The notes: generated by a model from the letters alone, not told the origin. A stretch of 64,000 bases of DNA from Alphaproteobacteria bacterium (GCA_965200095.1 OZ241350.1:694853-758852), one strand, 5' to 3'. Positions 3,715-62,545 are shown, counted from the first letter of the stretch. Numbers and translations: made by a program.

Positions 3715-4017
3715 ATGAGTGATGTTCCGGGCGGCGGCAAACGCGGGGCGGGGCCGGTGGCCACCGTAGGCGATGCAACGGAGAGTAACCGCGTGCAAAT
3801 CAAGGTGAACGGAGTCTCCGTCACGGTCACAGAGACCGTCTTGATACGCGAAATGCTGGAAGCGGCAAAAAACGAAGGTGCTATTGAAGGGTTGGTCAAA
3901 GAGTACGCCATTGAAAGGGTCAAGGAGGAAGGGGAAATCGGGATTGAGGAAATCATCACTGTGAAGGAGTTTGAGGAATTCTTGGCCGTGCCGACAGAAC
4001 CGACTCCGGTCGCATAG
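3715..4017 (+). CDS. small beta-grasp (ThiS/MoaD/ubiquitin-like) protein with acidic C-terminal extension (putative Ubl)
   Basis: 100 aa. The core IKVNGVSVTVTETVLIREML resembles the ThiS-type hxVNGxxhxhxxxxTlxxLL start of a beta-grasp. First gene of an operon with E2-like and JAB-E1 genes. Does not end in Gly-Gly, so processing would be needed. Confidence 0.4.
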   Translation: MSDVPGGGKRGAGPVATVGDATESNRVQIKVNGVSVTVTETVLIREMLEAAKNEGAIEGLVKEYAIERVKEEGEIGIEEIITVKEFEEFLAVPTEPTPVA

Positions 4018-4052
4018 CTAAATCGTAACTTCACGTGACCGGAGAAGGGTAC

Positions 4053-4439
4053 ATGAGCGTCGACGGTCGGATCGCCGGCGAATTGGAGGCTTTGGGTTAT
4101 CGACCCGAGATATTCGATGCCGAGACATCGGGCGGTCAACAGCGAGTCGTGACATTCCCATATCGCATAGGCGTCGGCCGATTCAAGGGCGAGATACGGA
4201 ATGTCGGTATTTCCACACAGTGCGAGGCGGTCGGATATCCTGAAACTCCGCCACACTGGATATTCATCAGCCCTCCGATAACCGATACGAAAGACGGCGG
4301 CCACCACGGAGTAAACAGCTTTGCCGGGAGAGAATGGGTCGCGTTGAGCCGCCCTCCGGGCGCATTTTGGGACAGAGTCCGGCACAAGGGTATGAGAGCG
4401 TATCTGGAGCATCTTTCCAGGGTCTGGTCCCGGATATGA
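4053..4439 (+). CDS. E2-like (UBC-fold) conjugating-enzyme candidate
   Basis: 128 aa from ATG 4053 (SD GAGAAGGG); the ORF-track GTG at 4035 has no RBS. A conserved Cys in ISTQCEAVGYPETPPHWIF and a hydrophobic core are compatible with a prokaryotic E2. Sits between the Ubl-like gene and the JAB-E1 fusion; stop overlaps the next start (ATGA). Confidence 0.45.
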   Translation: MSVDGRIAGELEALGYRPEIFDAETSGGQQRVVTFPYRIGVGRFKGEIRNVGISTQCEAVGYPETPPHWIFISPPITDTKDGGHHGVNSFAGREWVALSRPPGAFWDRVRHKGMRAYLEHLSRVWSRI

Positions 4440-5896: not shown

Positions 5897-6921
5897 TGAA
5901 AACAACAGACGAAAATTGGTGCGAGTTAATGGAGAAACTACATGACGTTAGCAAGCGCGTATCCAGGAGGCCGCTCTACATTGGGGAAATGCACGGCCTG
6001 CTACACGACAATTTGATTCTTTGCGCGCTGTTTCAGAACTTACCGGAAACAGGCGCTGGCTTGGTTCACTATACGTCATGGGAAAACGCACTGAACATGT
6101 TCAATGAATATGGTAACCCGGTAATGAGAATGTATAATTATGAGCAGTCTAATGACCCGGACGAGGGTAAAATCAAACCTAAAGAATGGGAAGAAGTGGA
6201 AAGAAACGTTGATCCGATTGACAAAAGTCAGAAAGATAACGACGGCAGGAAAAATGATTTCGAATACGACAGAAATACATACGGATGTTCGTTTTCTTCC
6301 GGTGGAAAGGGAGTCGAGGATGACCTGATGTACTGGAGGATGTACGGAAATAATGGGGAAGGATGTTCTTTGAAAATAACTCCCCCGAGTGCGCGCAAAC
6401 TAACGTCGCCGAGCACGCATAAACAAGATATATTAAGGGTGTGTTACCGTGACAAGGATTCCTCCGATAGGTGCGATCAGGAAGAGATTGAGGATGGAGA
6501 GATCGCCGTACGATTGCGCAAATTTTTCGCAGTCTGCACGGATATTGTCAGTAAAACTAACGGCAAATATCCGATTGAGGCAGAATTCATTGTAAGAAGA
6601 CTTCGCGAGATCGTTCGTGGATGTTATCACTTGGTCAAACATAAGAATTACGCAGTGGAGCGCGAGTGGCGCATGATTAAGGTTGCGCCGAATTCGGAAG
6701 CAATTCGATTCGATACGACGGGAGGAGGTCTGATTAGACGGTACATTGAGGGCCCTTGTCTGAAGGAAATTCTGAGTTCTGCTTCGGTCATAACGATAGG
6801 GCCAACCGTGCCCAACGGCGGTGCCGCGCGAGCCTATATTGAGTATCTGGCCAAGACAAAGCACGGAATACAGCATGTGGAAGTAAAAAATTCCAATCAA
6901 AACTATCGACGGCAATTGTAA
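5893..6921 (+). CDS. hypothetical protein, low-GC, possible effector or target of the Ubl system (DUF2971-like motif?)
   Basis: 342 aa from ATG 5893 (MMKTTDENW...), overlapping the E1 stop by ATGA. Visibly AT-rich compared with its neighbours. Motif LVHYTSWENALNMF...NDPDEG is reminiscent of the YxYTS...NDPxE signature of DUF2971; this is a weak recollection. Confidence 0.55.
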   Translation: MMKTTDENWCELMEKLHDVSKRVSRRPLYIGEMHGLLHDNLILCALFQNLPETGAGLVHYTSWENALNMFNEYGNPVMRMYNYEQSNDPDEGKIKPKEWEEVERNVDPIDKSQKDNDGRKNDFEYDRNTYGCSFSSGGKGVEDDLMYWRMYGNNGEGCSLKITPPSARKLTSPSTHKQDILRVCYRDKDSSDRCDQEEIEDGEIAVRLRKFFAVCTDIVSKTNGKYPIEAEFIVRRLREIVRGCYHLVKHKNYAVEREWRMIKVAPNSEAIRFDTTGGGLIRRYIEGPCLKEILSSASVITIGPTVPNGGAARAYIEYLAKTKHGIQHVEVKNSNQNYRRQL

Positions 6922-7010
6922 CGGTGCCGTCCTGAAACTTTTCTTGCACGGATGCTTGATGTCTGTCCAGCGGTTGTACGTTAGGGTGGTGGGTCGGCGC
7001 AATGATCGAT

Positions 7011-14937: not shown

Positions 14938-16188
14938 TTATAGCCGCGTCCGTCCAGGCCAGTACGCCGAGACATCGAATTCAAACAACTCTTTTTTTGA
15001 ATTACGCTTCCGAATGGCCCTGCATTTAATATTCTCAAATTCCAAACGTTCCAGCATCGCAGCGTATATCTGCTCTACGGGCAGTAACACGTCATAAAAT
15101 TTGGAATTCCCGACAATATAATGCAATTCGGCGCTGTCGTTCAACATTGGAATCAGTGAGTTGAAGTGCTTCCACATATCCTCGATATATTTCGCTACAT
15201 AGTTCGCCAATATCTTTCCACTCTTGTTATCGCTGCGCGCTATTCCGTCCAACGCGGTATCGATCATCGGATGTCCGAACGCCCCCGGCGGACGTTCCCA
15301 GTCCCCCAACCTGCTGGTTGCAATGCCCCATGTGCCGCCTATCGCCGACCAGTCCAGCTCGCCGGCATCCCGGCTATTTTGTAGAAAACCAAGCCAGTAC
15401 ATATACGGTCGCAGCTCACGGATATACGACATCCGGTTCGCATATGGCGGAGACGTAATCACCAGATCGAAAAACCCTTCCACGCACTTCGGTAACATTC
15501 TCGCGTCCCCGAATACGACGTGGCTCATTCCCTCCGGGCTTTCTTCCGCACCTCCCAATACGACTCGCACGTCTTCGCGAAATACGTCGCCCATATCGAT
15601 CTCGAACGGGATATACAATTGATCATCATACTTAAAGGACATCGACTGGTGGTTGAAGGCCGCGTTAGACAGTGCGATCAGAGTTCTGCAGAATGCCACC
15701 AGCAGCAGATCGCGTTCCGGAGATTTCGGTTCGCTCTCCACCTCAATGCCGGCCTTGAGTTTGCAAAGAAATTCCAAAGCATCCGGACGCCACCACCTCT
15801 CGATATTGCGAATAGGAGGGGCCGCCGCGGCGCCAACCGTTCCCCGCTTTACAACTCCGATGATCCGGTCGCATGCGCTGCGAACTGCGTCTATCGCGGC
15901 TCCAGTGTATCGTGTCGTCTTCGCCCGACCGAACCAAATCAGGAACGGATTGATATCCGTTGTCACCCCTTCGTGTCCATGATACGCAGCACTTAACGCT
16001 GTTGTCGCTGTTCCGCAGAATGGGTCCAAAACTCTTAACGGCTGCTCATGCCGCTCCGTCAATTCCTCGACCATCTTGACGGAGTATGCCGGTGTGAGCC
16101 GCAGCCAGCCATGACGCCCGATGTTCGTGTTGAACTTATGCGTGTAGTCGGCTCTCTGTCGCAGCTTTTCGCCATGAACCACGCTCAT
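14938..16188 (-). CDS. DNA methyltransferase (N6-adenine/N4-cytosine amino-MTase, SPPY motif)
   Basis: 416 aa. Motif I-like VLDPFCGTATTA near the N-terminus and motif IV LVITSPPYANR in the middle. Low GC. ATGA overlap with the downstream gene. Confidence 0.8.
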   Translation of the reverse strand: MSVVHGEKLRQRADYTHKFNTNIGRHGWLRLTPAYSVKMVEELTERHEQPLRVLDPFCGTATTALSAAYHGHEGVTTDINPFLIWFGRAKTTRYTGAAIDAVRSACDRIIGVVKRGTVGAAAAPPIRNIERWWRPDALEFLCKLKAGIEVESEPKSPERDLLLVAFCRTLIALSNAAFNHQSMSFKYDDQLYIPFEIDMGDVFREDVRVVLGGAEESPEGMSHVVFGDARMLPKCVEGFFDLVITSPPYANRMSYIRELRPYMYWLGFLQNSRDAGELDWSAIGGTWGIATSRLGDWERPPGAFGHPMIDTALDGIARSDNKSGKILANYVAKYIEDMWKHFNSLIPMLNDSAELHYIVGNSKFYDVLLPVEQIYAAMLERLEFENIKCRAIRKRNSKKELFEFDVSAYWPGRTRL

Positions 16189-16874
16189 GTCGCCTCCGGA
16201 GACAAAAGAACGTTCAGAACTGTATCTATTTCTTGACGGAGAATGGATCTGTTCCGCTCAAAAAACGCCGCCAAATCATATCCAACGACGTCGCGCATGA
16301 AATCATAGGTCGATATCGAGGGATCTCCCGCACCCATGACCCCGGTGATAACCGACCATTTTTCAGAGCGATATCGCATCAATATATCCCCGTCGATTTG
16401 CCCCGACAAAATCACGGCGCAAGGGAGGTAACCCTTCGTATAAGCTGTGGCTGCGTTTGCGATATCCGCATTCTGCCGCTTGGAATCTTTGCTCTTGTAT
16501 CCCTGTCGCACTTCAAAAACCGCGCCCGTCAACCCCTCTAGAACATCATCGTCAACGTCCAGCATCTTCGCGGAGTTACGCATCCATCGATGAAACGAAT
16601 TTCGCTTGTCGTTATCACCGATTCTTTCGAGAGGAACTCGGCCGTCCATATACAATGTCCGCTTCCGGCCGCTCGTCGATGTTACCCGATACGACCAAAT
16701 CACGTCTTTCTCAGACAGCCCCAGAAAATCTTTTATGGCGCGGCGAAAGACTTTTTCGCAGCCAATCCCGATCTGGCGATAAATGCTTGTCATTCCGCCC
16801 GCTGCCCTGTGGGCGGCGTACATCATGGGATTGTCCAGGCCGAACCAGCTGTAGAAAACGTCTTTTCGATACAT
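16185..16874 (-). CDS. putative type II restriction endonuclease (partner of the MTase)
   Basis: 229-aa low-GC ORF immediately upstream of the MTase, translationally coupled (ATGA), with a good SD (AGGAG). No recognisable family. Call rests on operon context and a possible PD-(D/E)xK-like DVDDDVLEGLTGAVFEVRQGYK. Confidence 0.45.
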   Translation of the reverse strand: MYRKDVFYSWFGLDNPMMYAAHRAAGGMTSIYRQIGIGCEKVFRRAIKDFLGLSEKDVIWSYRVTSTSGRKRTLYMDGRVPLERIGDNDKRNSFHRWMRNSAKMLDVDDDVLEGLTGAVFEVRQGYKSKDSKRQNADIANAATAYTKGYLPCAVILSGQIDGDILMRYRSEKWSVITGVMGAGDPSISTYDFMRDVVGYDLAAFFERNRSILRQEIDTVLNVLLSPEAT

Positions 16875-16889
16875 CTCCTGGAATTGGTT

Positions 16890-18072
16890 TAGTGTCCCGC
16901 TTCTGAAGTTCGCATGATAATGTGTGTGATTATGTGGCTTGTGTGGAGGTCATGGGATGGGGCGTCGTGCGGGTCGGCCGGTTGCGTCCGTGGTGTTGAG
17001 CGACGAAGAGCGGTCGTATCTTGAGCGCCGGGTTCGCGGTCGTCGCGTTGGGCGTGCGCTTGCGGAGCGTTGCCGCATCGTCCTGCGTTGCGCCGATGGT
17101 TTGACGAACAAGGCGGTTGCTGCGGAAGTCGGCGTGCATGAACACACTGTCGGCAAGTGGCGTCGTCGTTTCCTGAAGGATCGCGTTGAGGGGTTGTCGG
17201 ACGCACCGCGTTCGGGGCGTCCGCGCAGCATAGAAGACGCCCGGGTGGCCGAGGTTGTCCGGCGGACGCTCGACGCGTCGCCGGTCGACGCCACCCATTG
17301 GTCGATCCGCTCGATGGCCCGGGAAGTGGGGCTTTCCCCGGCGTCGGTGCAACGGATCTGGAAGGCGTTCGGTCTGCAACCGCACCGGTCGGAGACGTTC
17401 AAGCTTTCCGGCGACCCGCAGTTCGTGGACAAGGCGCCGACATTGTCGGCCTCTATCTGTCGCCGCCGGATCGCGCGCCGGTGCTCTGCGTCGACGAAAA
17501 GAGCCGGATACAGGCGCTCGACCGCACCCGGCCCGTCCTGCCCATGACGCCGGGCATGGCCGAGAGGCGAACCCACGACTATCGGCGCAACGGGACGACC
17601 TCGCTGTTCGCCGCCCTCGACATCGCCACCGGTTTCGTTATCGGCAAGTGCTACAGGCGTTATCGGTCCCGGGAGTTCCTCTCCTTCCTCAAGGAAATCG
17701 ACGCCCATGTTCCCGATGACCTCGATATTCACATCGTCATGGACAACTACGCCACCCACAAGACCGCAGCGGTGAAATCCTGGATGGCGCGGCGTCCGCG
17801 CTATCGTGTTCACTTCACGCCGACCTCGGCGTCCTGGATCAATCGGGTGGAACGCCGGTTCGCCGAACTGACGCGCAAGCAGCTGCAAAGGGGCGCGCAT
17901 AACTCGACGAAACAGCTTGAAGCGGATATCCGCTCTTTTATCGACAAGCACAACCGGAACCCCAAACCCTTCAGGTGGACGAAATCCGCCGACGACATCC
18001 TCGCATCCGTCAAGCGCTTCTGCCATCGCGTCGAGCATACCCTATGCCACGAACTTTAGAGGCAGGACACTA
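16890..18072 (+). mobile_element. IS630-family insertion sequence, copy A
   Basis: 22-bp terminal IRs tagtgtcccgcttctgaagttcgc / rc tagtgtcctgcctctaaagttcgt, flanked by TA. Transposase in two overlapping frames. Identical copy inverted at 60684-61867. Confidence 0.85.
16939..18059 (+). CDS. IS630-family transposase (two overlapping frames, frameshift or pseudogene)
   Basis: N-terminal HTH (VGVHEHTVGKWRRRF) and a C-terminal DDE domain (HIVMDNYATHK ... SWINRVERRF). Confidence 0.8.
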
Positions 18073-18923: not shown

Positions 18924-19316
18924 TCGCCGAGCGTTGAAGATACGCCGCGAAATCGCGGAACGTTTTCGTCTTCTTGATATCGAGAAGACGGAAAGACTCG
19001 CTGAAGGAATTACGCCCTTCCAGCGTGCGGGTCACGAGTGCATGACCGAAGCGGCGTCCGACGCGCATCTTGAGAGTTGGATAGAAATTCCCGCCGCTCG
19101 GTCGCGGACGCGATCGCAACCGTTCAAGCTCGGCGTCGTATGCGATATGGAATTGCCGTTCGGTGAGATCTCCAACATCGTAAATGCGGCGCAAGATAAC
19201 CAGTGTGCTTACCTTGAAGCGCAGGGCGATTCAATGAAGCGATGGGCCATAGGGGGTGACAGGATTTTCGGGACGATATACAAGGTGTTGTGGGTTTGGT
19301 TTCGAGGGTGTCCAGG

Positions 19317-20481
19317 ATGTCGGCTTCCGAGGGTTCGGGCGAGAGTTTGTGGGATGTTTTGGGCGAGATACCGGATCGCCGCGGGGCGAAGGGGCGTCGG
19401 TATTCGTTGCGTTCGGTTCTGGTTCTGACGCTTGCGGCGATGCTTTCGGGGGCCAACGACCTGCGCGCGGTGTATCGCTGGGGCCGTCGGCTGCCGGAGG
19501 ATGCGTTGTCTGTTCTGGGTCTGTCGGATGCTCCGCGCCATGCGACGTATCGCTATTTTTTCAAGGCGCTGGATGTGGAGGCGGCGGAGCGTGTGCTGGG
19601 GTCGTGGGCTTGCGGCTGCGATGCTCCGGGTCATGTTGCTCTGGACGGCAAGCGCCTGCGGAGCAGCGCGCCGGCGGGTCACGACGGGCGCAAGGGGGTT
19701 CATCTTGTGTCGGCGTTTGCCGGTCGTCCGGGGGCTGTGATTGGGCAGTTGCGGGTTGCGCCGGAGGGCAACGAGGCGACGGCGGCTCTGGCGTTGCTCA
19801 AGCGTCTGCCTCTCAAGGGTGCGGTTGTGACCGGCGATGCGGCGTTTTGCCGGCGCGCCCTGTGCGAGGCGATCCGCGACGGGGGCGGCGACTATTTGTT
19901 CGCCGTCAAGGCGAACCGGCCGGGTTCGATGTCCGACATCGCCGTTTCCTTCGGCGATGCTTTTCCCCCCTGAGCTGAACGCGGCGCTGGGCGGCGCTTC
20001 GCCGCAGGCCCTCCTGGCCGCCCCGCCGCCCGACGTCGAATATGCCGAGACCGTGGAGAAGGGCCATAGCCGCATCGAGATGCGCCGCCTTGCGCTGTCG
20101 TGCGAGGTCGTGCCCCATCGGCCGGGTGCGGCCCGGGTCTGCCGCATCGAGCGGACCTGTGAGCGCGCCGGCAAGACCTCCCGCGCGGTTTCCTGGGCGG
20201 TGACGAGCCTGCCCCGGGCCCGCGCCGGCCCGGAAGAGCTGCTCGCTCTCGTCCGCGAGCACTGGGGCATCGAAAACCGCCTCCACTACCGCCGCGATGT
20301 CGCCTTGCGCGAGGATGCGAGCCGTATCCGCGCCGGCAACGCGCCGCAGGCGCTGGCGGCGTTGCGGAACACCATGCTGCGGCTTGTGCATTCCCTGCCG
20401 GGTCCGCTTGCCGCGATCCGCGAAGCCTTCGCGGAAGACCGTCCCCACGCCATCGCCACCGCAAAATACGGGGTTCTTTGA
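19317..20481 (+). pseudogene. ISAs1-family (H-repeat-associated) transposase, split into two frames
   Basis: N-terminal ESLWDVLGEIPDRRGAKGRRYSLRSVLVLTLAAMLSGANDLRAVYRWGR and C-terminal EHWGIENRLHYRRDVALREDASRIRAGNAP are ISAs1 hallmarks. The reading frame breaks around 19840-19970. Confidence 0.7.
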
Positions 20482-20489
20482 ATTGCCCT

Positions 20490-21361
20490 GCCTTGAAGCG
20501 CCGCGCCATGCGCTGGAGCTCGGCCTGCAAGTCCTCTCCCCCTCGATATTCGTCGCGCACGACCGAAAGCGGAGCGAGCAGCTCCGCCGCAACCCGGTTG
20601 CACCAGGATTCGATCTCGTCCGTCGGCGCAGAGTCGGGGCGGCTGTCGGAAAGCGCGGTCTCTCCGAGCCAGAGATGCGCGAGCTCGTGCGCCAGCGTGA
20701 ACATTTGCGCGGCCTTCGTGTCGGCGCCGTTGACGAAAACGAGGGGGGGGGGGGGGGCGAAATCGTCGGCCAGCGCAAACCCCCGGAACTCCTCTGGATC
20801 GAGCTTGCGGCGAGTGTGGCTGCCGACGATGCCGGACACCATGACCAGGACGCCGAGCTCGTCCGCCTGCTCGATGAAGCGGCGCAACGCCTCCGTCCAG
20901 GTCCGGAGGTCGCGCCATTCCTCCAGATCGAACCCGAGCGCCCTGCGCATCCGCGCCGCGACCGTTTCGACATCGTCCGTCAAGCGGGCCGAACCGACGA
21001 ACGGCAGCGGGTCTTCCCCCTCGGAGCGGGCGAACTCCCGGTACCAGTCCTGGCGCTGCTGGCAGAAATAGATCGTGTGGAGGAGGTTCAGGCTGGGCCG
21101 GCCGACCGGCGCGCCGCCGACGGTGCGGAAATCAGGGATCGGGAACGGTTCGTCGGGCGGCTCGGACGTGAAGAAATATCCGACTCCGGCGTGCACGGTC
21201 TTCGCGAATTTCTCGAGCTGTTTGAGGGTCGGGCGAACATCGCCGTTCTCCCACTCGCGGTATCTGGGGAATTTGCGGACCAGCGCGTCCACGCTTACCC
21301 CGGCGCGCTCGCGGCCCCAGCGCAGCATCTCCGGTTTGACATCGACGCGGAAGGTGGTCAT
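20490..21361 (-). CDS. HTH + ImmA/IrrE-family (M78) metallopeptidase-like protein; 3' end probably disrupted by ISAs1
   Basis: ATG 21361 (GGGGG SD). HExxH in FTLAHELAHLWLGE. The N-terminal region resembles the HTH of IrrE-like proteins. Open frame reads through into ISAs1 with no natural stop; a possible 3' remnant lies on the minus strand at 18924-19194. Confidence 0.5.
20743..20757. repeat. G15 homopolymeric tract inside the ImmA-like coding sequence (encodes APPPPL on the minus strand)
   Basis: Counted directly: gag + 15 g + cga. Confidence 0.9.
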
Positions 21362-21690: not shown

Positions 21691-22185
21691 TGCATAACCG
21701 GTTTCGCTTGCCGCAGGATCGTCTTCCCGCGTCTTTACAACGCTCCCGAACTCACCGGCAGAGCATAACGATGTATATCGAACAATACTTCCATTCCCGC
21801 GAAAGAGCGTGTGAAGAAATCGGACGGCTCTCATCGTGACGGACGGATCGCCGAAGTAACGGAATTGTAAAAACAATAACCACCGAATAGTACTTCGTCA
21901 TTCCCGCGAAAGCGGGAATCCGGAGGCGGCCGTCCGCTATATCGGCCCGTTTTTCTTACGGAAACGCCGCAAACAGATTCCCGCTTTCGCGGGAATGACG
22001 AGTATTTGTAAGGCCGTCCTATTTCTTCACATGCTGTTTCGCGAGAATTACCGAGGCAGGGGGCGGATGTTCCCAATTCCGTCACGCATCGTCATACGCC
22101 GACGGCGGGTTCGGAAACGTCGCGAAACGCCGGGAACACAATCCTGCTACAGGCGAAACGAGTTATGCAGAGGTCTCAAGTATGT
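21690..22185. repeat. cluster of REP/MITE-like hairpin repeats (core gtcattcccgcgaaagcgggaatc palindrome)
   Basis: Multiple direct and inverted copies of ttcccgcgaaagcgggaa hairpins and associated 60-100-bp modules. Homologous clusters at 41560-42750 and 61880-62545. Confidence 0.6.
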
Positions 22186-41559: not shown

Positions 41560-42750
41560 GCCGTCATGGTCCGCCGGCGGCTGTCGTTTCGATACCGTGA
41601 GATCTCTGCATAACTCGTTTCGCCTGTGGCAGAATCGCGTTCCCGGCGCTTTGCGACGTTTCCGAACCCGCCGTCGGCGTATGACGATGCGTGACGGAAT
41701 TGGGAACATCTGCCCCCTGCCCCGGTAATTCCCGCGAAAGAGCATGTGAAGAAATCGAACAGCGTTACAAACACTCGTCATTCCCGCGAAAGCGGGAATC
41801 TCTTTGCGGCGTTTCCGTAAGAAAAACCGCGCCGATATTGCGGACGGCCGCCTCCGGATTCCCGCTTTCGCGGGAATGACGAAGAGTAGAGGCGTCTCGC
41901 GACTTTTTCACGCCCGCCTTCGAGCGCGTAGAGAAGTCCAACGTCTCTCACTGCGATGGTCGGAGCACCGGAAAAACGGCGCCGTGGGAGACGACAACCC
42001 TCCGGCAATACTTCGTCATTCCCGCTTTCCAGCTTGTGAAGAAATCGCGCGCCTCTCATCGTGACGGACGGATCGCCGAGGCGCCGGTATTGCAAAAGAA
42101 AATACCCATCGAATAATACTTCGTCGTTCCCGCGAAAGAGCGTGTGAAAAAATCGCGCAGATTTACAAATACTCGTCATTCCCGCGAAAGCGGGAATCCG
42201 TTGCGGCGTTTCCGTAAGAAAAACCGCGCCGATATTGCGGACGGCCGCCTCTGGATTCCCGCTTTCGCGGGAATGACAAAGTATTATTCGGTGGGTATTT
42301 TCTTTTGCAATACCGACACCTCGGCGATCCGTCCGTCACGATGAGATCCGCCCGATTTCTTCACATGCTCGAAAGCGGGAATCCAGAACGGCCGCCCGAA
42401 AGACTCGCCGGTGTTTTTCTTGCGGAAACGCCGCAACAGATTCCCGCTTTCGCGGGAATGACGAGTATTTATACGGCTGTCCGATTTCTTCACATGCTCT
42501 TTCGCGGGAAGGGCGAAGTATTATTCGGCGGTCTTGTCTTTACAATACCGATACTTCGGCGGTCCGTCCGTCACGATGAGAGCCGTCCGATTTCTTCACG
42601 CGCTCTTTCGCGGGAAAGAGAGAAGGCGGATTTTCGCAATTCCATCGGGCATCGTTATGCTCCGCCGGTGAGTTCGGGAGCGTCGCAAAACCGCGGAACC
42701 GCGATCCTGCCGCAGGCGAAACCGGTTATGCAGAGGTCTCACCGTGCGTT
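41560..42750. repeat. second cluster of REP/MITE-like hairpin repeats
   Basis: At least five copies of gtcattcccgcgaaagcgggaatc...gattcccgctttcgcgggaatgac units and associated modules. Confidence 0.6.
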
Positions 42751-42855
42751 CTCGCTTGACATCGGCGGTGAACTCGGCGAAAGAGCGCTGCGCCGTGGAT
42801 GATTCGGACGCGGCAGGAACGTGAGAAACCGCATCGCGCCTCCGGGAGCGCGCCT

Positions 42856-43212
42856 ATGACGCAAGCCGAACGCGAGGCGGCGGCTCGACGGGCTCGTTAT
42901 GTGGGCAGCCCCGAGCACAAGAACGCCAGGTGGTGGGGCGGATTGCCTGAGGCGGGAGCCCGGGGGCCAAGGCTCACCACCATTTGTCGCATGACCTCCG
43001 ACAAGGACAGACGGACGGCGACGGCCTGGTTGAGACAGGCCATTCGTTCCGGACAATACAAATTCGTGCGCGGAGACCTGGATTTCCCCAAACATGTCTG
43101 GTACAGGGATGAAACCGGCAAGGTATGGTGCGGTAGATGCATCAATCGCGAGTTGGGCACGTATAAGGGTTGGCCCATAGAGGAGGCGGAGCGGCATGGA
43201 ATTTTCGATTGA
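42856..43212 (+). CDS. hypothetical small protein (118 aa)
   Basis: ATG 42856. The product carries a Cys/His-rich segment GKVWCGRCINRELG. Overlaps the next ORF by 17 nt. Confidence 0.4.
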   Translation: MTQAEREAAARRARYVGSPEHKNARWWGGLPEAGARGPRLTTICRMTSDKDRRTATAWLRQAIRSGQYKFVRGDLDFPKHVWYRDETGKVWCGRCINRELGTYKGWPIEEAERHGIFD

Positions 43213-48290: not shown

Positions 48291-49939
48291 TCCGCGGCGC
48301 GCCACTCCTCGATCCACATCGTCGTCGTCACGTCGTGCCCCGTCGGGCGCACGCCTTCGAGCCAGTGGGGGAACATGTAGGGTTCGGCGCGGAAGAACAG
48401 CGGCAGCGCCGGCAGGTCGGTGGCGTAGAGAGTCTGGAGTTCGGCCCACAAAGGCAGCCTCGCCTCCGGGTCGAGCTCGCGTTCGATGGCGTCGATCAGT
48501 TCGTCCATGCGTTCGCTGCGGTAGCCGGGGAAGTTCTGCCCCGACCAGCCGTTTTCGGCAGTGGGGATCTGGTCCGACTTGAGGGTGGAGACGGGCGCGG
48601 TTTCCGGCGTGCTCAACCAGGCGTACATCGACAATCCGTCATTGGCGCGCTTCGTCACCGTCTCGCCGAAGAACACCCGCGCGGGTTCGTTGCGGATGAG
48701 CGTCCGCACGCCGACATTCGCCCACTGGCTTTGCAGCACCTGCTGGACGAGTTCGCGCGACTTGTTGCCGGTTGTGGTCATCAGGGTCAGGGTGAGCGGC
48801 TCGCCGGCGGGGTTGCGCCGCACGCCGTCGCCGCCGTCGGTCCATCCCGCGTCGTCGAGCAGCGCCCGGGCGCGCTCCGGGTCGTGGGCATAGACGGGGA
48901 CCTGCTCGCTATAGGCGCGGTCCAGGGGGTTGACGTTCGAATGCGCGACCGGCTGGTGGCCGCCGAACAGCCGCTCCGTGAGCTGCTCGCGGTCGAGCGC
49001 ATGCATCAGCGCCTGGCGCACGCGCCGGTCGGCCAGACGGGGGTTGTCGAGGTTTACGTCGATGTGCTCGTAGATGAGGCCCGGCCTGTAGAGGGCGCGG
49101 AAGCGGTCGCCGTGGCGCCGTTCGAACGACATCGCCTGTTCGACCGTGAAGCCCAGCACCCCGGCGACATAGTCGATCTCGCCCGACAACAGGTTCGCCT
49201 CGAGCGCGGCGGTGTTTTCGATGGTGCGCACGACGACGCGGTCGAAGGCCGGCGGCTCGCCGAACCAGGTGGGGTTGCGTTCGAGAACGACATGCGCGCC
49301 CGAGGCGACTTCGGCGACCCGGTAGGGGCCGAACCAGAGGCCGGGGTTGGTGGGGTCGATGTTGTAGAGCGTGCGATGGCGGTATTCCGCCGGGTCGGCG
49401 AAGGCCGCTTCCTCCAGGTGGCGGGGGAGCAGCATCGACGAATAGTCGTTGTAGCGGTAGGTCACGCGGTCGATATGGACGGTGAAGGTCTTGTCGTCGA
49501 CGATGTCGATGGCGAGGGTGCGCCGGAAGCCCTCGCTGCCGGCGAAGCCCGACAGTTCGTGGCGCCCGACTTCCCAGGTGAAAACCGCGTCGTGGGCGGT
49601 GACCGGCGTTCCGTCCCCCCAGGTCGCCTCGGGGTGAATATCGTAGGTTACGGCGATTCCGGTCCCGCCGTCGGGCAGCGTTTCGCGCACTGCGAGGCCG
49701 TTTTCGATGGTCGGCAGGCGCGAGCACAACATGCAGACGAGTCGCCAGTCCGGGTCCCAGGTCGTGACCGGCCGCATGGCGGCGGCGATCACGTAGAACT
49801 TCGCCGTCATCGAGTCGATATGCGGGTGCAGGGTGGACGGGAACTGCGTCACCCCGATGGTAAGCGTATCCCGCGCCGCGGCGGGCGCCGCCATCATGAC
49901 GGCGAGGAGGCAGGCGAATGCGCGGGCGGTGGGTTTCAT
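48287..49939 (-). CDS. ABC transporter substrate-binding protein, family 5 (peptide/nickel)
   Basis: 550 aa; signal peptide MKPTARAFACLLAVMMAAPAAA. Confidence 0.85.
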   Translation of the reverse strand: MKPTARAFACLLAVMMAAPAAARDTLTIGVTQFPSTLHPHIDSMTAKFYVIAAAMRPVTTWDPDWRLVCMLCSRLPTIENGLAVRETLPDGGTGIAVTYDIHPEATWGDGTPVTAHDAVFTWEVGRHELSGFAGSEGFRRTLAIDIVDDKTFTVHIDRVTYRYNDYSSMLLPRHLEEAAFADPAEYRHRTLYNIDPTNPGLWFGPYRVAEVASGAHVVLERNPTWFGEPPAFDRVVVRTIENTAALEANLLSGEIDYVAGVLGFTVEQAMSFERRHGDRFRALYRPGLIYEHIDVNLDNPRLADRRVRQALMHALDREQLTERLFGGHQPVAHSNVNPLDRAYSEQVPVYAHDPERARALLDDAGWTDGGDGVRRNPAGEPLTLTLMTTTGNKSRELVQQVLQSQWANVGVRTLIRNEPARVFFGETVTKRANDGLSMYAWLSTPETAPVSTLKSDQIPTAENGWSGQNFPGYRSERMDELIDAIERELDPEARLPLWAELQTLYATDLPALPLFFRAEPYMFPHWLEGVRPTGHDVTTTMWIEEWRAAE

Positions 49940-50070
49940 CGGCAGGTTCCCTTCGTCATCGGTGTGAAATAGATACGGTGGGGAGCTACGAATTGCGAGT
50001 CGGGCAGCATTCTACCGGCAACACCCATAACGCCATCGAACGGCTTTCCGCAGCGGCTCGCCGCCATTGC

Positions 50071-52374
50071 TCAGTCCGAAATATTTCTACAACGCTGTAT
50101 AACGGCATCCTCGTTTGCACTTGGAGCCATCAAAATTCGTCCAACCCTCTTCTTATGACTGCGACATGGCCGCCATATGGTGTTTCTTCTCGACTTATCT
50201 GGAAGCACAAAACCTTCCGACTGAAGAGACTGCAACACACGAGGAACCAGCCGTCGCGCGCGACTGTCCAATCCTCTATACAAGGCATTCTCCCTGCGCC
50301 CCGACCCGGTTTGCATGTATAGCTTTCTCAATATGGTTAGGCACACCCGAATCCCCAAAGGAAGATCAAGCGCTAGCATCTGAGATATAGTATCCGTCGC
50401 TTTATTGAATTTGCCGATTTCGCATTTGGCGTCAAATTTCTCGGCAGGAAGATCCAATCTGGATACGGGACCTTCCATTTCATCGATCATGCATTCTTCA
50501 AAAGATGGCATTCTAGCGATATCGACATCCGACTCAATCTCCACACGGGAGAAAAAACAGTCGGCATACCGCAATTTTGACAAATTAGACCTAGAATCTC
50601 CAAATTCAAGATCAGCTATGAAAAGGCCGCTCAGTTTTATATCTTTCTGGATGCTGCAATCATTCTCCAGCATCAACCTTGCTATATCTGACGCCATGTA
50701 ATTGGCGCCACACTTATACGCCTCCGCAAGTGCTGTATTAATCTTACCCTCTCCAAAACCTTCGGCCTTCACCTTACGAGAGGCCACACCGATACCAAGA
50801 GGGCCCATTGAACTCTCGATATCCTCCAAAACGGACAGCGGGAAATTGAATGGATCATGTATAAACGTCAGAAGATCTCCGGATCTACACGCATCGGCAA
50901 AAGACTCATCAATGAAAGTCCGAGAATTTTCCTCCTCGCGATCAACACCAAGACCCGGGAGGCGCTGAAGGAGAACTAAGCCTCGCTCGTCCGGACTGTA
51001 TCCGCAGACACTCTTAAACGCCTGAATCACCGAATCCTGACTAATCGATCCAAGTCCCATGTGCGAGGATCGGGCTTTTGTTGCTAGGCGTTCAAGAATT
51101 TTCCTCACCGTGCTTCCATCAATTCCTGCCTCGATCTCCGCCTCGCGATCTGCAATGCTATCCAATAGAGTATCCCAGCCATCTTCTGGACTCTTGGGGC
51201 TATCCGTAGATTCTTTATCAAGAAAAACATTCAAAAACCCTTTAGCGGCTAAGTATCCCACAAGCAACGGCCTAGTGGGAAGCCAAGACGGAACCGATCC
51301 GACAAGTCCCACACGCCTTAGGTATGTGCCAATTTGATCATCGGTAAATTCAGTGAGAGATAGTTCGATAGACTCCTGTGAGAGGCCAAGAGACTCGTGT
51401 CTCTCGCCGGAATTATCAAAAAAATGAGCTCGCCCCGCAATTAATAATCCGGATCCTTTGGGATGCTCGCGAACTAGACGTCGAACTGCTTCCATCGCCC
51501 GATAGCGATTGTCTCGAAGATTATGCCATGATCCCTGAATGGGGATCGTAGAAATCTCATCAAAACCATCTATCAACAGGTGAACATATCCAGCCCGCCA
51601 TGCTCGGACGAGATGAGATGGCTGATCAAAGCCAATCGATGTCGCATGTCTTATAATAACTTCTGCACTGTCCCGCTGTCCGTAATGATCTCGAAGGTTG
51701 AGATAGACGGGGAATTTATGCGTCATACCTCTCAAATGATCTTCCTTAAATCTGTAGTACATTTCCCGAAGTGTCATGCTCTTGCCAGCACCATAATCCC
51801 CCAAGAGAACCACGGTTTTCCCCTCAGAGATCGCGGATCGGAGTTTGCTTCGGGGGAATGCTTCCTTAGACTTTATGTCCAACAAATCAATCGGAACGTA
51901 TTTGATATCTGCGCCATTTACGCTGTGCTTTCCGGTCGCCGGATCACGAACACTGCCAAAGGAGTATGCGTCTCTTGTGCTGAGATAGCCTCTTGAATTT
52001 ATGAGCCGCGATTGAAATTGCGAGAACGATAATGTATTTATATCTTGGCGATATTTTTCCGCGACTTTGCGCTGATCGGCGGTGGGTTCGTCAAGTGTGA
52101 TAAACCACCCTTTGACCGCACGGTCACTACTTTTCCTCCGACGGCGCTGCACCAATTTGGATATCTTCGATATGTCATGTAGCGCCTTATCTTTTTTTCG
52201 AGATGTCGTTGCTTCAACTATATGAATGCAATCTTCCGTTTCGAATATACCGTCCGTTTCTCGCCCATCCACCATCGCGGCACCAAAAAATTCAGCGCTT
52301 GGCCATAGTGATCTAGCGATACGTCGAACCTCATGTTCGAAATTTTCGCCCTCATATCCGATTCCGTTTGCCAT
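50071..52374 (-). CDS. NACHT-family STAND NTPase with N-terminal PD-(D/E)xK-like nuclease domain (bacterial NLR-like, candidate antiphage protein)
   Basis: Low-GC gene. N-terminal TDGIFETEDCIHIVEATTSRKKDK (D...ExK). Walker A TVVLLGDYGAGKSMTL. NACHT Walker B signature VHLLIDGFDE. Long C-terminal helical/repeat region. ATG 52374 has an AGAGGG SD; alternative start at 52518. Confidence 0.7.
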   Translation of the reverse strand: MANGIGYEGENFEHEVRRIARSLWPSAEFFGAAMVDGRETDGIFETEDCIHIVEATTSRKKDKALHDISKISKLVQRRRRKSSDRAVKGWFITLDEPTADQRKVAEKYRQDINTLSFSQFQSRLINSRGYLSTRDAYSFGSVRDPATGKHSVNGADIKYVPIDLLDIKSKEAFPRSKLRSAISEGKTVVLLGDYGAGKSMTLREMYYRFKEDHLRGMTHKFPVYLNLRDHYGQRDSAEVIIRHATSIGFDQPSHLVRAWRAGYVHLLIDGFDEISTIPIQGSWHNLRDNRYRAMEAVRRLVREHPKGSGLLIAGRAHFFDNSGERHESLGLSQESIELSLTEFTDDQIGTYLRRVGLVGSVPSWLPTRPLLVGYLAAKGFLNVFLDKESTDSPKSPEDGWDTLLDSIADREAEIEAGIDGSTVRKILERLATKARSSHMGLGSISQDSVIQAFKSVCGYSPDERGLVLLQRLPGLGVDREEENSRTFIDESFADACRSGDLLTFIHDPFNFPLSVLEDIESSMGPLGIGVASRKVKAEGFGEGKINTALAEAYKCGANYMASDIARLMLENDCSIQKDIKLSGLFIADLEFGDSRSNLSKLRYADCFFSRVEIESDVDIARMPSFEECMIDEMEGPVSRLDLPAEKFDAKCEIGKFNKATDTISQMLALDLPLGIRVCLTILRKLYMQTGSGRRENALYRGLDSRARRLVPRVLQSLQSEGFVLPDKSRRNTIWRPCRSHKKRVGRILMAPSANEDAVIQRCRNISD

Positions 52375-52582
52375 TTTGCCCTCTACATTCGCAACATGAT
52401 GCGGGCGCAGTGCCACTCCGGCATGCGCCGTGATGGTAGAGAGGCTTTTGCGTGCCGCATTTCGGATGTACGCATGCCAATCTGGGGCTGTCTCGGTTGA
52501 TATCAGGCATTGGAGCACATCCTCGCATCTTGGTCAACCCTCTTTCGCGCGTGCGCCCGGAATTCAGGGCTGCGACCATGCG

Positions 52583-53539
52583 CTATCGCCGCGCCGTCGG
52601 CAACTCCGCGAGCGCAGCCGCCACGTCGGGCACGTTAAGGCGGGCGAGCGGCGAACGGCGGAGGACGCGGACGGCAGGGCCGCGGGGCGCGCTGAGGGCA
52701 GGGTTGGAAGCCGCGCCGAACAACGCAACCGTCGGGCAGCCGCAGACGGCGATGATGTGTGTCGGGCCCGTGTCGTTGCCGACTGCGCAGTGCGCGCTGC
52801 GGGCGAGAGCCGCAACCTGACCGAGGGACGTGCGGCCGCACAGGTCGATCGCCTCCGGAGCGGCGGCGGCGATTCGCGCGAGCGCGCGGCCCTCCGGCGC
52901 GGCGCCGATCAGGACAGGCGAAGTCCCCTCACGGGCGAGCGCCCGCGCCAGCGCGGCATAGTGCTCAGCTGGCCAGCGCTTCGCCGGATGGCGCCGAGAA
53001 CAGCCGGGAATCAGAAGCGCGAAACGCTCGGGCAGACGGAAATGGGAGGTCTCGCCGTCAAGCCACGAAAGACCCGGCGGCGGTGTTTCCGGGATTCCCG
53101 CCATGGCGAGCTGCTCGGCCTGGCGGTCGAGGGTGTGCATGGAGTTACGGCCCGGGTTGGCGTGAGGATGCGAGCAGCCGGCGGCGATGCCCGACCATTC
53201 GGGCGTGCGACCCGGCGGAAACAGGCGGAAATACCGCGCGGAGCGGCGCGAGGTCTGGAGATCGTACACGCGGTCGAATCCCCCCCCCCCCCCCCCCCCC
53301 GCGAGGCGTCGGCGCAGCGCGCGCCAGGCGAAGACCCGCCAGCGCCCCGGACGGTCGTCGATCCACACATCGTCGAACCAGCCGCAGCGCCGCCCCAGAG
53401 CTGCGAACAGCGGCCCGGTCAACAGCACGATATGCGCCGCCGGATGGTGCGCGCGGATGGCGGCGAAAGGCCCGGTCGCCTGCACCCAATCGCCGAGCGC
53501 GCCCAGTTTGATGACGAGAATGCGCTCGGCGGTCTTCAT
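52583..53539 (-). CDS. ADP-heptose:LPS heptosyltransferase (GT9, RfaC/RfaF family)
   Basis: N-terminus MKTAERILVIKLGALGD and C-terminus AVGNDTGPTHIIAVCGCPTVALFG are GT9 hallmarks. Confidence 0.8.
   Translation of the reverse strand: MKTAERILVIKLGALGDWVQATGPFAAIRAHHPAAHIVLLTGPLFAALGRRCGWFDDVWIDDRPGRWRVFAWRALRRRLAGGGGGGGFDRVYDLQTSRRSARYFRLFPPGRTPEWSGIAAGCSHPHANPGRNSMHTLDRQAEQLAMAGIPETPPPGLSWLDGETSHFRLPERFALLIPGCSRRHPAKRWPAEHYAALARALAREGTSPVLIGAAPEGRALARIAAAAPEAIDLCGRTSLGQVAALARSAHCAVGNDTGPTHIIAVCGCPTVALFGAASNPALSAPRGPAVRVLRRSPLARLNVPDVAAALAELPTARR
53280..53300. repeat. C21 (G21 on coding strand) homopolymeric tract inside the heptosyltransferase CDS, encoding Gly7
   Basis: Counted directly: gaatc + 21 c + gcgagg; in frame (RRLAGGGGGGGFDRV). 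Confidence 0.9.
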
Positions 53540-53556
53540 CGCAGGGCGGGAGCGCA

Positions 53557-54876
53557 TCAGAGCGGGAGGGTCATGCGGGCGCGGAGGCCGCCGAAGGGGG
53601 AAGCGGCGAGCTGGATGTCGCCGCCATGGTTGCGCACCGCGTCGCGGGCGATGGAAAGGCCGAGGCCGACGCCGCCGGTGTCGGGGTTGCGCGCCGCGTC
53701 GAGACGGAAAAAGGGCTTGAAAACCTCCTCGCGGCTCGCTTCGGGGACCCCCGGGCCGTCGTCGTCGAGGGTGAGCGCCAGCGCGCCGCCCTCGCGCGCG
53801 ACGGTCAGCTGCGCCCGGCGCCCGTAGCGCAGCGCGTTGTCGATGAGGTTGACGAGCGCGCGCTTGACGGCGCCGGCGCGCAGGGTCGGACGCAGGCCGG
53901 GCGCGCGGTTGACGAGCGCCAGCGCCGCGCCGCGCCGGCGCGCGCCGGCCAGCGCCGAGTCGATCAGCGCGTCCAGATCGGTCTCCGCCGCGGTCTCGCC
54001 GCCCTCGCCGCGGGCGAAGGCCAGATAGCCCTCGATCATGCGCTCCATGTCGCCGACATCGGCCCGCAGCTCGCGCGCCGCCTCTTCGTCCGCGATCATT
54101 TCGATCTGCAACTTCATGCGGGTCAGCGGCGTTCGCAGGTCGTGGCTCACGCCGGCGAGCATTTCCGTGCGCTGCGAAATGTGCCGCTGGATGCGTTCGC
54201 GCATTTGCAGGAAGGCGCGCGCCGCCTGCCGCGCCTCGCGCGCGCCGCGCGGCTTGAAGTCCGCCGCCGGGATGCCCTTGCCGAAACTCTCCGCCGCGCG
54301 CGCCAGACCGATGATCGGCGCGACCTGCCCGCGCAGGAAATAGACCGCCGCCGCCAGCAGCACCAGCGATGTCCCCGCCATCCAGCCGATGAACACGTAA
54401 ACCGTCGAGCTGAACAGGCGCTTGCGCGGCGTCGCCGCCTCCAAAACGCCCGACGGCAATTCGACGGAAATGAACACCGTGCCCGGTTCGCGGCGCGTGT
54501 CGAAACGGACGGGGCGGTGGATAAGTTCCGGCAGCACCCGCGCCAGGGTCCAGTCGACGGGGCCGAAATGCGGGTGTGCCGGCGGTCCGTCCGCCAGCCG
54601 CGCGCCCGGACGGAAGACGGCGTCGATTTTGAGGCTCCGCCGCGCCCGGTCGATCAGCCAGAGCGGGTCCACCGCGGCGCCCCGCGCCGCCACGGCGTCG
54701 GCCAGCACCGCGATGTCGCCGGCGACCGACTGCGCGAGCCGGCGACCCACATCCTCCCAGAGGCGGTCGTAGAAGACGAAGGCGGACACCGCCTGCACGA
54801 CCGCCAGCGGGACCACGACGATGAGCAGCGACCGCCCGAACAGTCCGCGCGGCAGGAAGGCGCGCGGACCTTTCAC
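53557..54876 (-). CDS. sensor histidine kinase (EnvZ/PhoQ-type, two TM helices)
   Basis: GTG start with GGGGAGG SD. H-box GVSHDLRTPL; N, G1, G2 boxes (DDGPGVP, GGVGLGLSI). Confidence 0.85.
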   Translation of the reverse strand: MKGPRAFLPRGLFGRSLLIVVVPLAVVQAVSAFVFYDRLWEDVGRRLAQSVAGDIAVLADAVAARGAAVDPLWLIDRARRSLKIDAVFRPGARLADGPPAHPHFGPVDWTLARVLPELIHRPVRFDTRREPGTVFISVELPSGVLEAATPRKRLFSSTVYVFIGWMAGTSLVLLAAAVYFLRGQVAPIIGLARAAESFGKGIPAADFKPRGAREARQAARAFLQMRERIQRHISQRTEMLAGVSHDLRTPLTRMKLQIEMIADEEAARELRADVGDMERMIEGYLAFARGEGGETAAETDLDALIDSALAGARRRGAALALVNRAPGLRPTLRAGAVKRALVNLIDNALRYGRRAQLTVAREGGALALTLDDDGPGVPEASREEVFKPFFRLDAARNPDTGGVGLGLSIARDAVRNHGGDIQLAASPFGGLRARMTLPL

Positions 54877-54915: not shown

Positions 54916-55629
54916 TCACTGCGCGGCGCGCAGGACATATCCGGTGCCGCGCACCGTGGCGATGCAGCCCGGCGCGCGCGGGTCGGGTTCGATTTTGCGC
55001 CGCAGGCGGGCGACGCCGACATCGATCGAACGCTCGGCGACGCCGGTCTCGGCGCTCAGGGCGGCGCGCGTCACCGCTTCTCCCGCCCGTGCGGCGAGGG
55101 CGCGCAACAATCCCGTCTCGGTGACGCCGAGCGCCACCTCGGCGCCGTCGCGCGTCAGGCGCCCGCTAGCCGGGTCGAAGACGAAGGCGCCGAACCGCAC
55201 GCGCCGCCCCGGCCGGTCGCGGCCCGAGCGTCGCAGGATGGCGCGCAGCCGCAACGCCAGTTCGCGCGGCTCGAAGGGCTTGGCGAGATAGTCGTCGACG
55301 CCGCTTTCCAGTCCGGCGACGCGCTCGTCGGGCGCGTCCATCGCGCTCAGCATGAGGATCGGCAGGTCGCCGTCGCGGCGCAGCGAGCGGGCGAAGCGCG
55401 TGCCCGTCTCCCCCGGCATCATCACGTCGAGGACCATGACATCGAAGGCGAGGCTTGCGAGCCGGGCGCGCGCATCGGCGGCCGAGGACGCGGTCGCCAC
55501 CAGGAAGCCGTTGTCGCCGAGATAGCGGCTCAGCAGCCGCCGCAGCCTCGCGTCGTCGTCGACGACGAGGACGTGCGGGCGCGCCTCGGGGGGAAGCGCC
55601 CCGGGCGGCGCGGTTGCGGGCGCCGCCAC
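54916..55629 (-). CDS. OmpR-family response regulator
   Basis: Receiver (VLVVDDD...LDVMMPGETG) plus a winged-helix C-terminus (...IATVRGTGYVL). Start inferred as GTG 55629; uncertain. Confidence 0.75.
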   Translation of the reverse strand: MAAPATAPPGALPPEARPHVLVVDDDARLRRLLSRYLGDNGFLVATASSAADARARLASLAFDVMVLDVMMPGETGTRFARSLRRDGDLPILMLSAMDAPDERVAGLESGVDDYLAKPFEPRELALRLRAILRRSGRDRPGRRVRFGAFVFDPASGRLTRDGAEVALGVTETGLLRALAARAGEAVTRAALSAETGVAERSIDVGVARLRRKIEPDPRAPGCIATVRGTGYVLRAAQ

Positions 55630-55637
55630 GGCGCGGC

Positions 55638-56129
55638 TCAGGCCGCCCGCCGCGCGGCGAAGCGGGCGCGGTCCTCGTCGGCGATCAGCCCGAGCAGGAC
55701 GCCGGCGAACCCCTCGACCGCCTGGCCGCCGGCGGCGCGGTAGGCGCGGGCGAGGCGCCGGCGCAGAACCAGCGACAGCCGGCGCTCGAGTTCGCGCCCC
55801 TTGTCGGTGAGGGTCAGCAGGCGCTGGCGCCGATCCGCCGACCCGCGCGCCTGGACGATATGGCCCGTGCGCACGAGCGTCGCCACCGCGCGGCCCAGAC
55901 TCTGCTTGGTGATCTTGAGGATGCCGAGCAGCCGGGCGATGGAGACGCCCGGGTTGCGGGCGACGAACCACAGCACCCGGTGATGGGCGCGGCCGAGGCC
56001 GAGGGGGCCGAGAACGCCGTCGCACTCGGCGATGAAGTCGCGGCCGGCGAAGAACAGCAACTCCATGCCGCGGTCGAGCTCGCGGTCGCGCAGGAACAGC
56101 GGGCTGGCGGGGGATTTCACGTCGCTCAT
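55638..56129 (-). CDS. MarR-family transcriptional regulator
   Basis: 163 aa; winged HTH HHRVLWFVARNPGVSIARLLGILKITKQSLGRAVATLVRTGHI. Confidence 0.8.
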   Translation of the reverse strand: MSDVKSPASPLFLRDRELDRGMELLFFAGRDFIAECDGVLGPLGLGRAHHRVLWFVARNPGVSIARLLGILKITKQSLGRAVATLVRTGHIVQARGSADRRQRLLTLTDKGRELERRLSLVLRRRLARAYRAAGGQAVEGFAGVLLGLIADEDRARFAARRAA

Positions 56130-57116: not shown

Positions 57117-59775
<2,659 letters not shown>

Positions 59776-61879: not shown

Positions 61880-62545
61880 CGCGAACAAACAGGGATAAGA
61901 CCTCTGTATAACTCGTTTCGCCTGTGGCAGGATCGCGTTCCCAGCGTTTTGCGATGTTTCCGAACCTGCCGTCGGCGTATGACGATGCGTGACGGAATTG
62001 GGAACATCCGCCCCCTGCCTCGGTAATTCCGGCGAAAGAGCATGTGAAGAAATCGAGAGACGCTACTACTCTTCGTCATTCCCGCGAAAGCGGGAATCTG
62101 CTTGCGGCGTTTTCCGTAAGAACACCGGGCCGATATTGCGGACGGCCGCCTCCGGATTCCCGCTTTCGAGCGTGTGAAGAAATCGGACGGCCCCCACAAT
62201 GACGTCTGGAGAACCGGAGAATTGGCGTTGTGAAAGTCAACAGCCCGCCCACAATACTTCGTCATTCCCGCGAAAGCGAGAATCCGGAAGCGACCGTCCG
62301 CAATGTCGGATCGGTTTTCCTTGCGGAAACGCCGCAACAGATTCCCGCTTTCGCGGGAATGACGAAGAGTAATAGCGTCTCTCGGTTTCTTCACGCGCTC
62401 TTTTGCGGGAAAGAGAGAAGGCGGATTTTCGCAATCTCATCGGGCATCGTTATGCTCCGCCGGTGAGTTCGGGAGCGTCGCAAAACCGCGGAACCGCGAT
62501 CCTGCCGCAAGCGAAACCGGTTATGCAGAGGTCTCAGGGATACTT
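61880..62545. repeat. third cluster of REP/MITE-like hairpin repeats
   Basis: The same ttcccgcgaaagcgggaa hairpins and the tail modules cgcatcgtcatacgccgacgg...gttatgcagaggtctca also found at 22081-22180 and 42640-42740. Confidence 0.6.

Follow-up and report, generated by a model that had tools for sequence, protein, structure and literature searches.

A length-variable poly-G tract in an accessory GT9 glycosyltransferase gene of an alphaproteobacterium: a candidate contingency locus for a surface glycan

The window analysed here is a 64,000-nucleotide stretch of an alphaproteobacterial assembly (Alphaproteobacteria bacterium, GCA_965200095.1, OZ241350.1:694853-758852) with an overall GC content of 68%, and the alanyl-tRNA synthetase encoded in it is 67-68% identical to those of its closest named relatives (Telmatospirillum, Pararhodospirillum, Stella and Magnetospirillum). 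Four low-GC stretches (47-60%), at about 4000-7000, 15000-17000, 42000-43000 and 50000-52500, are likely horizontally acquired islands, the remainder having 68-77% GC. Dispersed short repeats of ~75-260 nt, 75-91% identical, lie at 729-806, 21893-22006, 41775-41889, 42168-42283 and 62023-62411 and may represent a MITE- or REP-like element. No match came from Rfam and tRNA scans of the 64-kb window. The gene under study, its neighbours and the variable region that contains it are as follows.

52583-53539, minus strand: GT9-family glycosyltransferase gene (Pfam PF01075), 318 aa, with its ATG at 53539 and its stop codon at 52583-52585.
53557-54876, minus strand: sensor histidine kinase gene (Pfam HAMP, HisKA and HATPase_c), its stop codon and the more upstream of the two possible GT9 ATGs overlap.
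54916-55629, minus strand: OmpR-type response regulator gene (Response_reg and Trans_reg_C in the syntenic contigs L002, L005 and L092; window translation).
55638-56129, minus strand: MarR-family regulator gene, the first of a string MarR, response regulator, kinase and (GT9) (gene calls of L002, L005 and L092; window translation).
50071-52518, minus strand: NACHT-domain NTPase gene (Pfam NACHT, 5.4e-12), ~48% GC, downstream of the GT9 gene.
49976-53556, no strand assigned: variable hotspot, from an SBP_bac_5 gene to the kinase stop codon, holding the NACHT and GT9 genes in the window strain.

The alternative GT9 start at 53557 lies 18 nt upstream, would give 324 aa and overlaps the kinase stop codon (TGATG). 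A promoter and terminator scan gave no signal between the kinase gene and the GT9 gene, with nothing above background, and the GT9 gene appears to be co-transcribed with the upstream MarR, response-regulator and kinase string. The first-pass annotation had described the gene as lying next to a two-component system and an acquired NACHT gene, and both neighbours are borne out: the kinase and the OmpR-type response regulator are on the same strand as the GT9 gene, and the low-GC gene with the NACHT match is strain-specific cargo of the hotspot and likely belongs to one of the horizontally acquired islands. PADLOC returned no match for the GT9 or the NACHT protein, so that neither is catalogued as a defence protein in that library.

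The product of the gene is a GT9 glycosyltransferase. It matches Pfam PF01075 (Glyco_transf_9) with 96.8 bits against a gathering cut-off of 22 (E 1.6e-27), and an AlphaFold2 model built with a 23-sequence alignment (pLDDT 91.2, pTM 0.89) adopts a GT-B fold of two Rossmann domains like that of WaaC/WaaF. With this model Foldseek retrieved the Veillonella GT9 protein 3tov (E 1.4e-17, TM 0.79), E. coli heptosyltransferase II (1psw, 2.8e-17) and WaaC (1.7e-16), the same proteins that sequence searches of the PDB return. The earlier designation as an LPS heptosyltransferase holds at the level of the GT9 family and fails at the level of the enzyme: all NCBIfam models for heptosyltransferases I, II and III scored far below their cut-offs (TIGR02193, 75 against 185 bits; TIGR02195, 74 against 135; TIGR02201, 48 against 170), so that "heptosyltransferase" is a family label only for this protein. 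All homologues keep the N-terminal GxxGD motif (G13, G16, D17) unchanged. In the model the Gly run forms a loop (residues 80-89) between a helix (69-79) and a strand (90-93) of the N-terminal domain, a placement that explains the tolerance there of six Gly, seven Gly or a G6E sequence.

The loop is encoded by an uninterrupted run of 21 C on the plus strand at 53280-53300 (G21 on the coding strand). The codons around it read CGC CTC GCG (GGG)x6 GGA TTC, or R-L-A-G7-F; the run starts at the last base of the Ala codon, extends through six GGG codons and ends two bases into GGA, so that Ala80-Gly81..87-Phe88 are encoded at the tract, which covers codons 80-87 of 318 and is in frame in the 318-aa ORF of the window. 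Sequence and codons thus agree with the initial description of a 21-nt homopolymer encoding an in-frame Gly7, and the gene is in the ON frame in the window as first stated, on a count that rests on one assembly. Leaving aside this tract and a G15 at 20743-20757, no homopolymer in the 64 kb exceeds 8 nt; a G12 probe matches only these two tracts, with 0.03 matches expected in dinucleotide-preserving shuffles. A 21-nt run is far beyond chance, which is ruled out as its origin. We took about 7-8 or more uninterrupted G or C as the threshold of simple-sequence instability, and the tract exceeds it both in the window and in seven relatives of the same species (11 to at least 25 nt). It also lies inside the ORF where a change in length alters the product, the lengths that break the frame leaving 128-172 aa.

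Homologous loci (~75 from genomes and ~80 from metagenomes, 43-73% identity), read at the DNA level, provide the background against which the tract is to be read. Among the matches listed, the GT9 relatives on genome contigs come from Rhodospirillales-like and unclassified alphaproteobacterial MAGs and are at most 67% identical. In ~150 homologues (43-74% identity) the site holds three residues (GGG, GAG or GGR) in mixed codons such as GGC GGC GGC; the longest G or C run is 6 among the 147 loci with a readable site, and a run of five or more Gly occurs in none of the 127 homologue clusters outside this species. When 22 homologues are aligned, the window's species has four extra residues between the end of the RRRL helix and the F-x-R-V-Y-D-L-Q strand, and the tract in the window is accordingly a 12-nt in-frame expansion. 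The closest outgroup (73% identity) reads GCG GGG GCC GGG TTC at the site. The tract is, on this comparison with homologues, a lineage-specific expansion, for which that sequence is a plausible seed. The first-pass annotation had held that a conserved Gly-rich loop in mixed codons among homologues would count against phase variation. A short mixed-codon loop does exist, but it has three residues and is never a homopolymer or variable in length, so that the comparison does not refute the claim, and we rejected a conserved Gly-rich loop as the reading of the tract. Further tract alleles were sought in three ways: a DNA scan of JGI metagenomes for G7R plus flank gave no matches, a protein-based metagenome scan gave nothing above 62% identity, and a cluster of N-terminal GT9 fragments held no members beyond the two known.

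Within the species, alleles could be compared between the window and seven independent contigs from different samples, whose genes are ~95-99% identical; the tract lengths are throughout those of assemblies (short-read metagenomes, Logan contigs and probably long-read contigs). The tract and predicted product of each allele are listed below.

Window: G21, frame kept, 318 aa.
L001: G20 + A (G6E), frame kept, 318 aa.
L004: G18, frame kept, 379 aa, with an extra 3' deletion.
L002: G13, frameshifted, 128 aa.
L006: G13, frameshifted, 128 aa.
L003: G11, frameshifted, 172 aa.
L005: GC + G20, frameshifted, 131 aa.
L007: at least 25 G; the contig starts inside the tract, and G25+ATTCGA is exactly one 31-mer.

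The eight alleles thus carry at least six different tract lengths, three in frame and four frameshifted. In every out-of-frame allele the tract is the sole lesion, and setting it to an in-frame length yields an intact 318-aa ORF in four of four cases. Pairwise dN/dS across 290 codons is 0.13-0.43 (21 pairs, dS 0.013-0.105), which indicates purifying selection on the GT9 gene and, judged from these assembled alleles, a tract whose state changes faster than the GT9 sequence diverges. Between L004 and L007 only 5 of 785 aligned positions differ, and yet they have 18 and at least 25 G, respectively. These alleles also have a practical consequence for annotation, since the out-of-frame ones are called as split or truncated genes, as all four are here; the 90%-identity protein cluster of the gene has eight members with odd lengths (185, 228, 290, 324 and 385 aa among them), which likewise suggest split gene calls.

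The species also includes strains that have no copy of the gene at all. The GT9 gene is accessory in this species, with 5 of 13 strains lacking it. In the five contigs without it (L092-L096) the kinase-side flank is 98.1-98.3% identical to the window, no GT9 sequence is present in any, and homology breaks off no more than a few bases from the kinase stop codon (window 53527-53553); in L092, L094 and L095 it resumes at the SBP_bac_5 gene (window 49889-49975). Between these borders the window strain and L005 carry the GT9 gene with the low-GC NACHT gene; L001, L003 and L004 carry it with Gabija (on L001, GajA 4e-245 and GajB 5e-222); L094 has a GmrSD/HEC-05-like gene without GT9; and L092, L093, L095 and L096 have 0.6-1.3 kb of non-coding or repeat DNA without GT9. 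The GT9 gene therefore occurs only in the NACHT and Gabija variants of the hotspot. Strains with and without it coexist in a single sample, ERZ25070167 (L001 at 6.8x and L094 at 39x). The repeat DNA that fills the GT9-less hotspot of L092 (3437-3993) belongs to the same ~75-260-nt family that is dispersed in the window.

We consider it probable, on these sequences, that G21 is a slipped-strand contingency locus that switches an accessory surface-glycan GT9 gene on and off. In such a model, slipped-strand mispairing during replication would add or remove G's in codons 80-87; frame-keeping lengths (18, 21, or 20 G + A) would yield a full-length enzyme with a Gly loop of six to seven residues, and other lengths a 128-172-aa fragment without most of the GT-B fold, leaving the enzyme off. 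The population would then be a heritable, probably reversible mix in which some cells bear a particular LPS or surface-glycan modification and others do not, and this might be of use against phages and other surface-recognising agents. The model builds on the tract itself, its length differences and their effects on the frame, the conserved and otherwise intact remainder of the gene, the position of the loop and the accessory status of the gene, and it is from these that we infer slippage as the mechanism, its reversibility and switching rate, an LPS substrate and an adaptive value of the tract; the proposed link to phage evasion would come from the neighbouring defence hotspot together with general knowledge. 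The phase-variation reading first proposed from the window by itself has in this way gained ground, through length polymorphism in near-identical genes, the presence of ON and OFF alleles, the integrity of the gene outside the tract and purifying selection on it. The accessory status of the gene and the second long tract of the window are additions to the first-pass annotation.

The second long tract bears on the adaptive reading.

20743-20757, minus strand: second long tract, G15 on the plus strand and C15 on the coding strand, in an ImmA/IrrE (Peptidase_M78) gene at about 20491-21361.

C15 adds three in-frame prolines at a position occupied by one Pro in homologues of 96-98% identity; the sequence there is GCT CCC CTG in the syntenic 423-kb contig L091, so the tract is a strain-specific expansion from C4 to C15. 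The gene is cut by an IS-like insertion at 19222-20491, with two overlapping transposase-like ORFs (19290-19973 and 19837-20481), across which homology to L091 jumps from 20491 to 19222. Because the gene is already cut, the expansion sits in a pseudogene, and this genome evidently can produce long G/C runs that have no function, which weakens the adaptive reading of the GT9 tract and makes a lineage-specific expansion bias more possible. Elsewhere along the same contig, which is 97-98% identical to the window, L091 has ~2.35 kb that the window is without (window 22431/22432 against L091 7076-9431), including the 3' portion of a type IIG restriction-modification gene (Eco57I-like, 1071 aa), so that the window copy of that gene appears truncated. 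A G10 at L091 9094-9103, within the portion deleted from the window, encodes the last three Gly just before the stop codon of the Eco57I-like gene and is possibly another length-variable tract in this species.

One alternative is a neutral reading, which we regard as unlikely: the tract would be a mutational hotspot expanded by chance from the GGG-GCC-GGG loop in a dispensable, decaying gene, and its OFF alleles would be early pseudogenes with no adaptive role. The C4-to-C15 expansion in the IS-disrupted gene is a strain-specific precedent for such an event, and the GT9 gene is missing from five conspecific strains. The L004/L007 lineage, in two independent samples, has in addition a 16-nt deletion between short direct repeats (GCCGTYCGC) in the GT9 gene (L004 about 1200, L007 about 630; window about 52660-52680), which frameshifts the last ~25 residues and brings the ORF to 379 aa; dispensability and this deletion also fit a gene in decay. 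The in-frame fraction, 3/7, is what random lengths would give, near a random third, and dN/dS rises to 0.3-0.4 in comparisons with L003. Against this stand the values well below 1 in all 21 pairs, OFF-OFF pairs included, and the fact that all out-of-frame alleles are intact apart from the tract. An essentially uninterrupted run of at least 11 G has moreover been kept in eight lineages (dS ~0.03-0.10), where contraction or interruption would be expected without selection or frequent re-expansion.

It is more improbable still that the tract is real but stable, that the length differences are sequencing or assembly errors and that the gene simply encodes a Gly-rich loop. Every sequencing platform is prone to error at long G homopolymers, the contig of L001 has a coverage of 6.8x, and the L007 contig breaks exactly at the tract; individual assembled lengths could be wrong by one or more bases, homopolymers of 11-25 nt being hard to call, and the exact count of 21 in the window, and with it the ON call, is uncertain because it depends on one assembly of a long homopolymer. 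The range of lengths, from 11 to at least 25, nevertheless far exceeds the usual error of about one base. L002 and L006, two independent assemblies of one lineage from different samples (6 aligned differences), both have G13, so that the assembled lengths are not pure noise, and the first 31-mer of the Logan contig L007, G25+ATTCGA, means that reads with at least 25 G and the true flank exist. The tract itself is not a one-off assembly artefact, a concern raised in the first-pass annotation, because a G run of at least 11 is found at the same site in seven other independent assemblies of the species; its exact length stays assembly-dependent. General homopolymer noise in the window assembly was likewise rejected: over ~30 kb of alignment with relatives no other homopolymer indels were found, the other indels being multiples of three in genes and one intergenic single base, so that the assembly is not generally noisy at homopolymers. 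A G8 inside alaS, the alanyl-tRNA synthetase gene (57768-57775), is kept at 8 in five relatives and thus provides a check, from within the data, on the stability and correct assembly of 8-nt runs. In L096 the alaS run reads as G9, but a frameshift was rejected, the cause being an adjacent T-to-C substitution with no indel.

An RNA- or DNA-structure role (transcriptional slippage restoring the frame, a G-quadruplex or SD-like element, or internal restart at a GTG ten bases downstream) is very improbable: a 21-G run can in principle form a G-quadruplex or promote RNA polymerase slippage, and gene callers do start at that GTG (MYDLQ...) in the out-of-frame L002 and L003 and in L007, but a product restarted downstream of the tract would have neither the GxxGD motif nor the acceptor domain's first 90 residues, nothing in these analyses points to slippage or G-quadruplex formation, and any such role would come on top of the DNA length variation without taking its place.

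Returning to the contingency locus, a broader version of it can be envisaged, although we hold it to be doubtful. A lineage-specific process might expand short G/C codon runs to 15-25 nt and so create a "phasome", within which the GT9 tract would be a phage-receptor switch coupled to the defence hotspot (NACHT, Gabija or GmrSD), with surface variation and intracellular immunity exchanged and tuned together. Its basis is the pair of strain- or species-specific tracts in 64 kb together with the G10 in the Eco57I-like gene of a relative. Phasomes have so far been described mainly in small-genome, host-adapted pathogens. For the GT9 gene itself, natural populations represented in public assemblies already contain both ON and OFF alleles; if confirmed, the locus would extend contingency-locus biology to an uncultured environmental lineage and would offer a concrete place to ask if bacteria use LPS phase variation to evade phages where no host-pathogen relation is involved.

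On/off switches based on homopolymers in surface-glycan genes are textbook knowledge in Neisseria, Haemophilus, Campylobacter and Helicobacter; to our knowledge, they have rarely been documented in high-GC, non-pathogenic Alphaproteobacteria. We likewise know of no standard example of a poly-G-switched GT9, and a limited literature search found none. In C. jejuni, wlaN switches between G8 and G9 and the switching rate rises with tract length (PMC7248181), and fucosyltransferase genes of H. pylori switch via poly-C tracts (PMC6892558). The present gene resembles C. jejuni wlaN/cgtA, N. meningitidis lgtA/lgtC/lgtD/lgtG and H. pylori futA/futB/futC in that a G/C homopolymer lies within the coding sequence of a surface-glycan transferase, towards its 5' end, in that a change of length toggles full-length and truncated products, and in the alleles of different length among near-identical strains (PMC7248181, PMC6892558). 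It differs from them in its host, a high-GC (~68-75%) Rhodospirillales-like alphaproteobacterium from metagenomes and not a low-GC pathogen; in the length of the tract, 11 to at least 25 as opposed to the usual 8-14; and in the enzyme, GT9 as opposed to GT25, GT8, GT10 or GT42. The gene here is, in addition, accessory and abuts a defence hotspot, and its switching is proposed from assembled alleles.

As a protein, the enzyme shares with WaaC/WaaF (PDB 2gt1, 2h1h and 1psw) and with Veillonella 3tov the Pfam GT9 family, the GT-B fold (TM 0.72-0.81, Foldseek E ~1e-16 to 1e-17) and the conserved N-terminal Gly/Asp motif; however, it is only 21-24% identical to them, and none of them has a homopolymer-encoded loop. 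With the NCBIfam WaaC/WaaF/WaaQ equivalogs it reaches 34-75 bits, against cut-offs of 135-569 bits. Homopolymeric switch tracts in Mycobacterium tuberculosis and in prokaryotes generally are short, about 7-9 nt, whereas the tract here is 21 nt and derives from the 12-nt in-frame expansion. Outside the classic low-GC pathogens, two reports describe G/C homopolymer indels as reversible switches, the high-GC M. tuberculosis included (PMC11898584, PMC2831843). Among the Alphaproteobacteria, Acetobacter pasteurianus has hyper-mutable intragenic tandem repeats whose copy number varies over tens of generations (PMC2761278), with units of 5-8 nt in other gene classes, as against the mononucleotide repeat described here. 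Set beside these systems, the GT9 tract looks like a textbook switch with no new mechanism, and what is unusual about it is the host lineage, the length of the tract, the GT9 target and the placement beside a defence hotspot.
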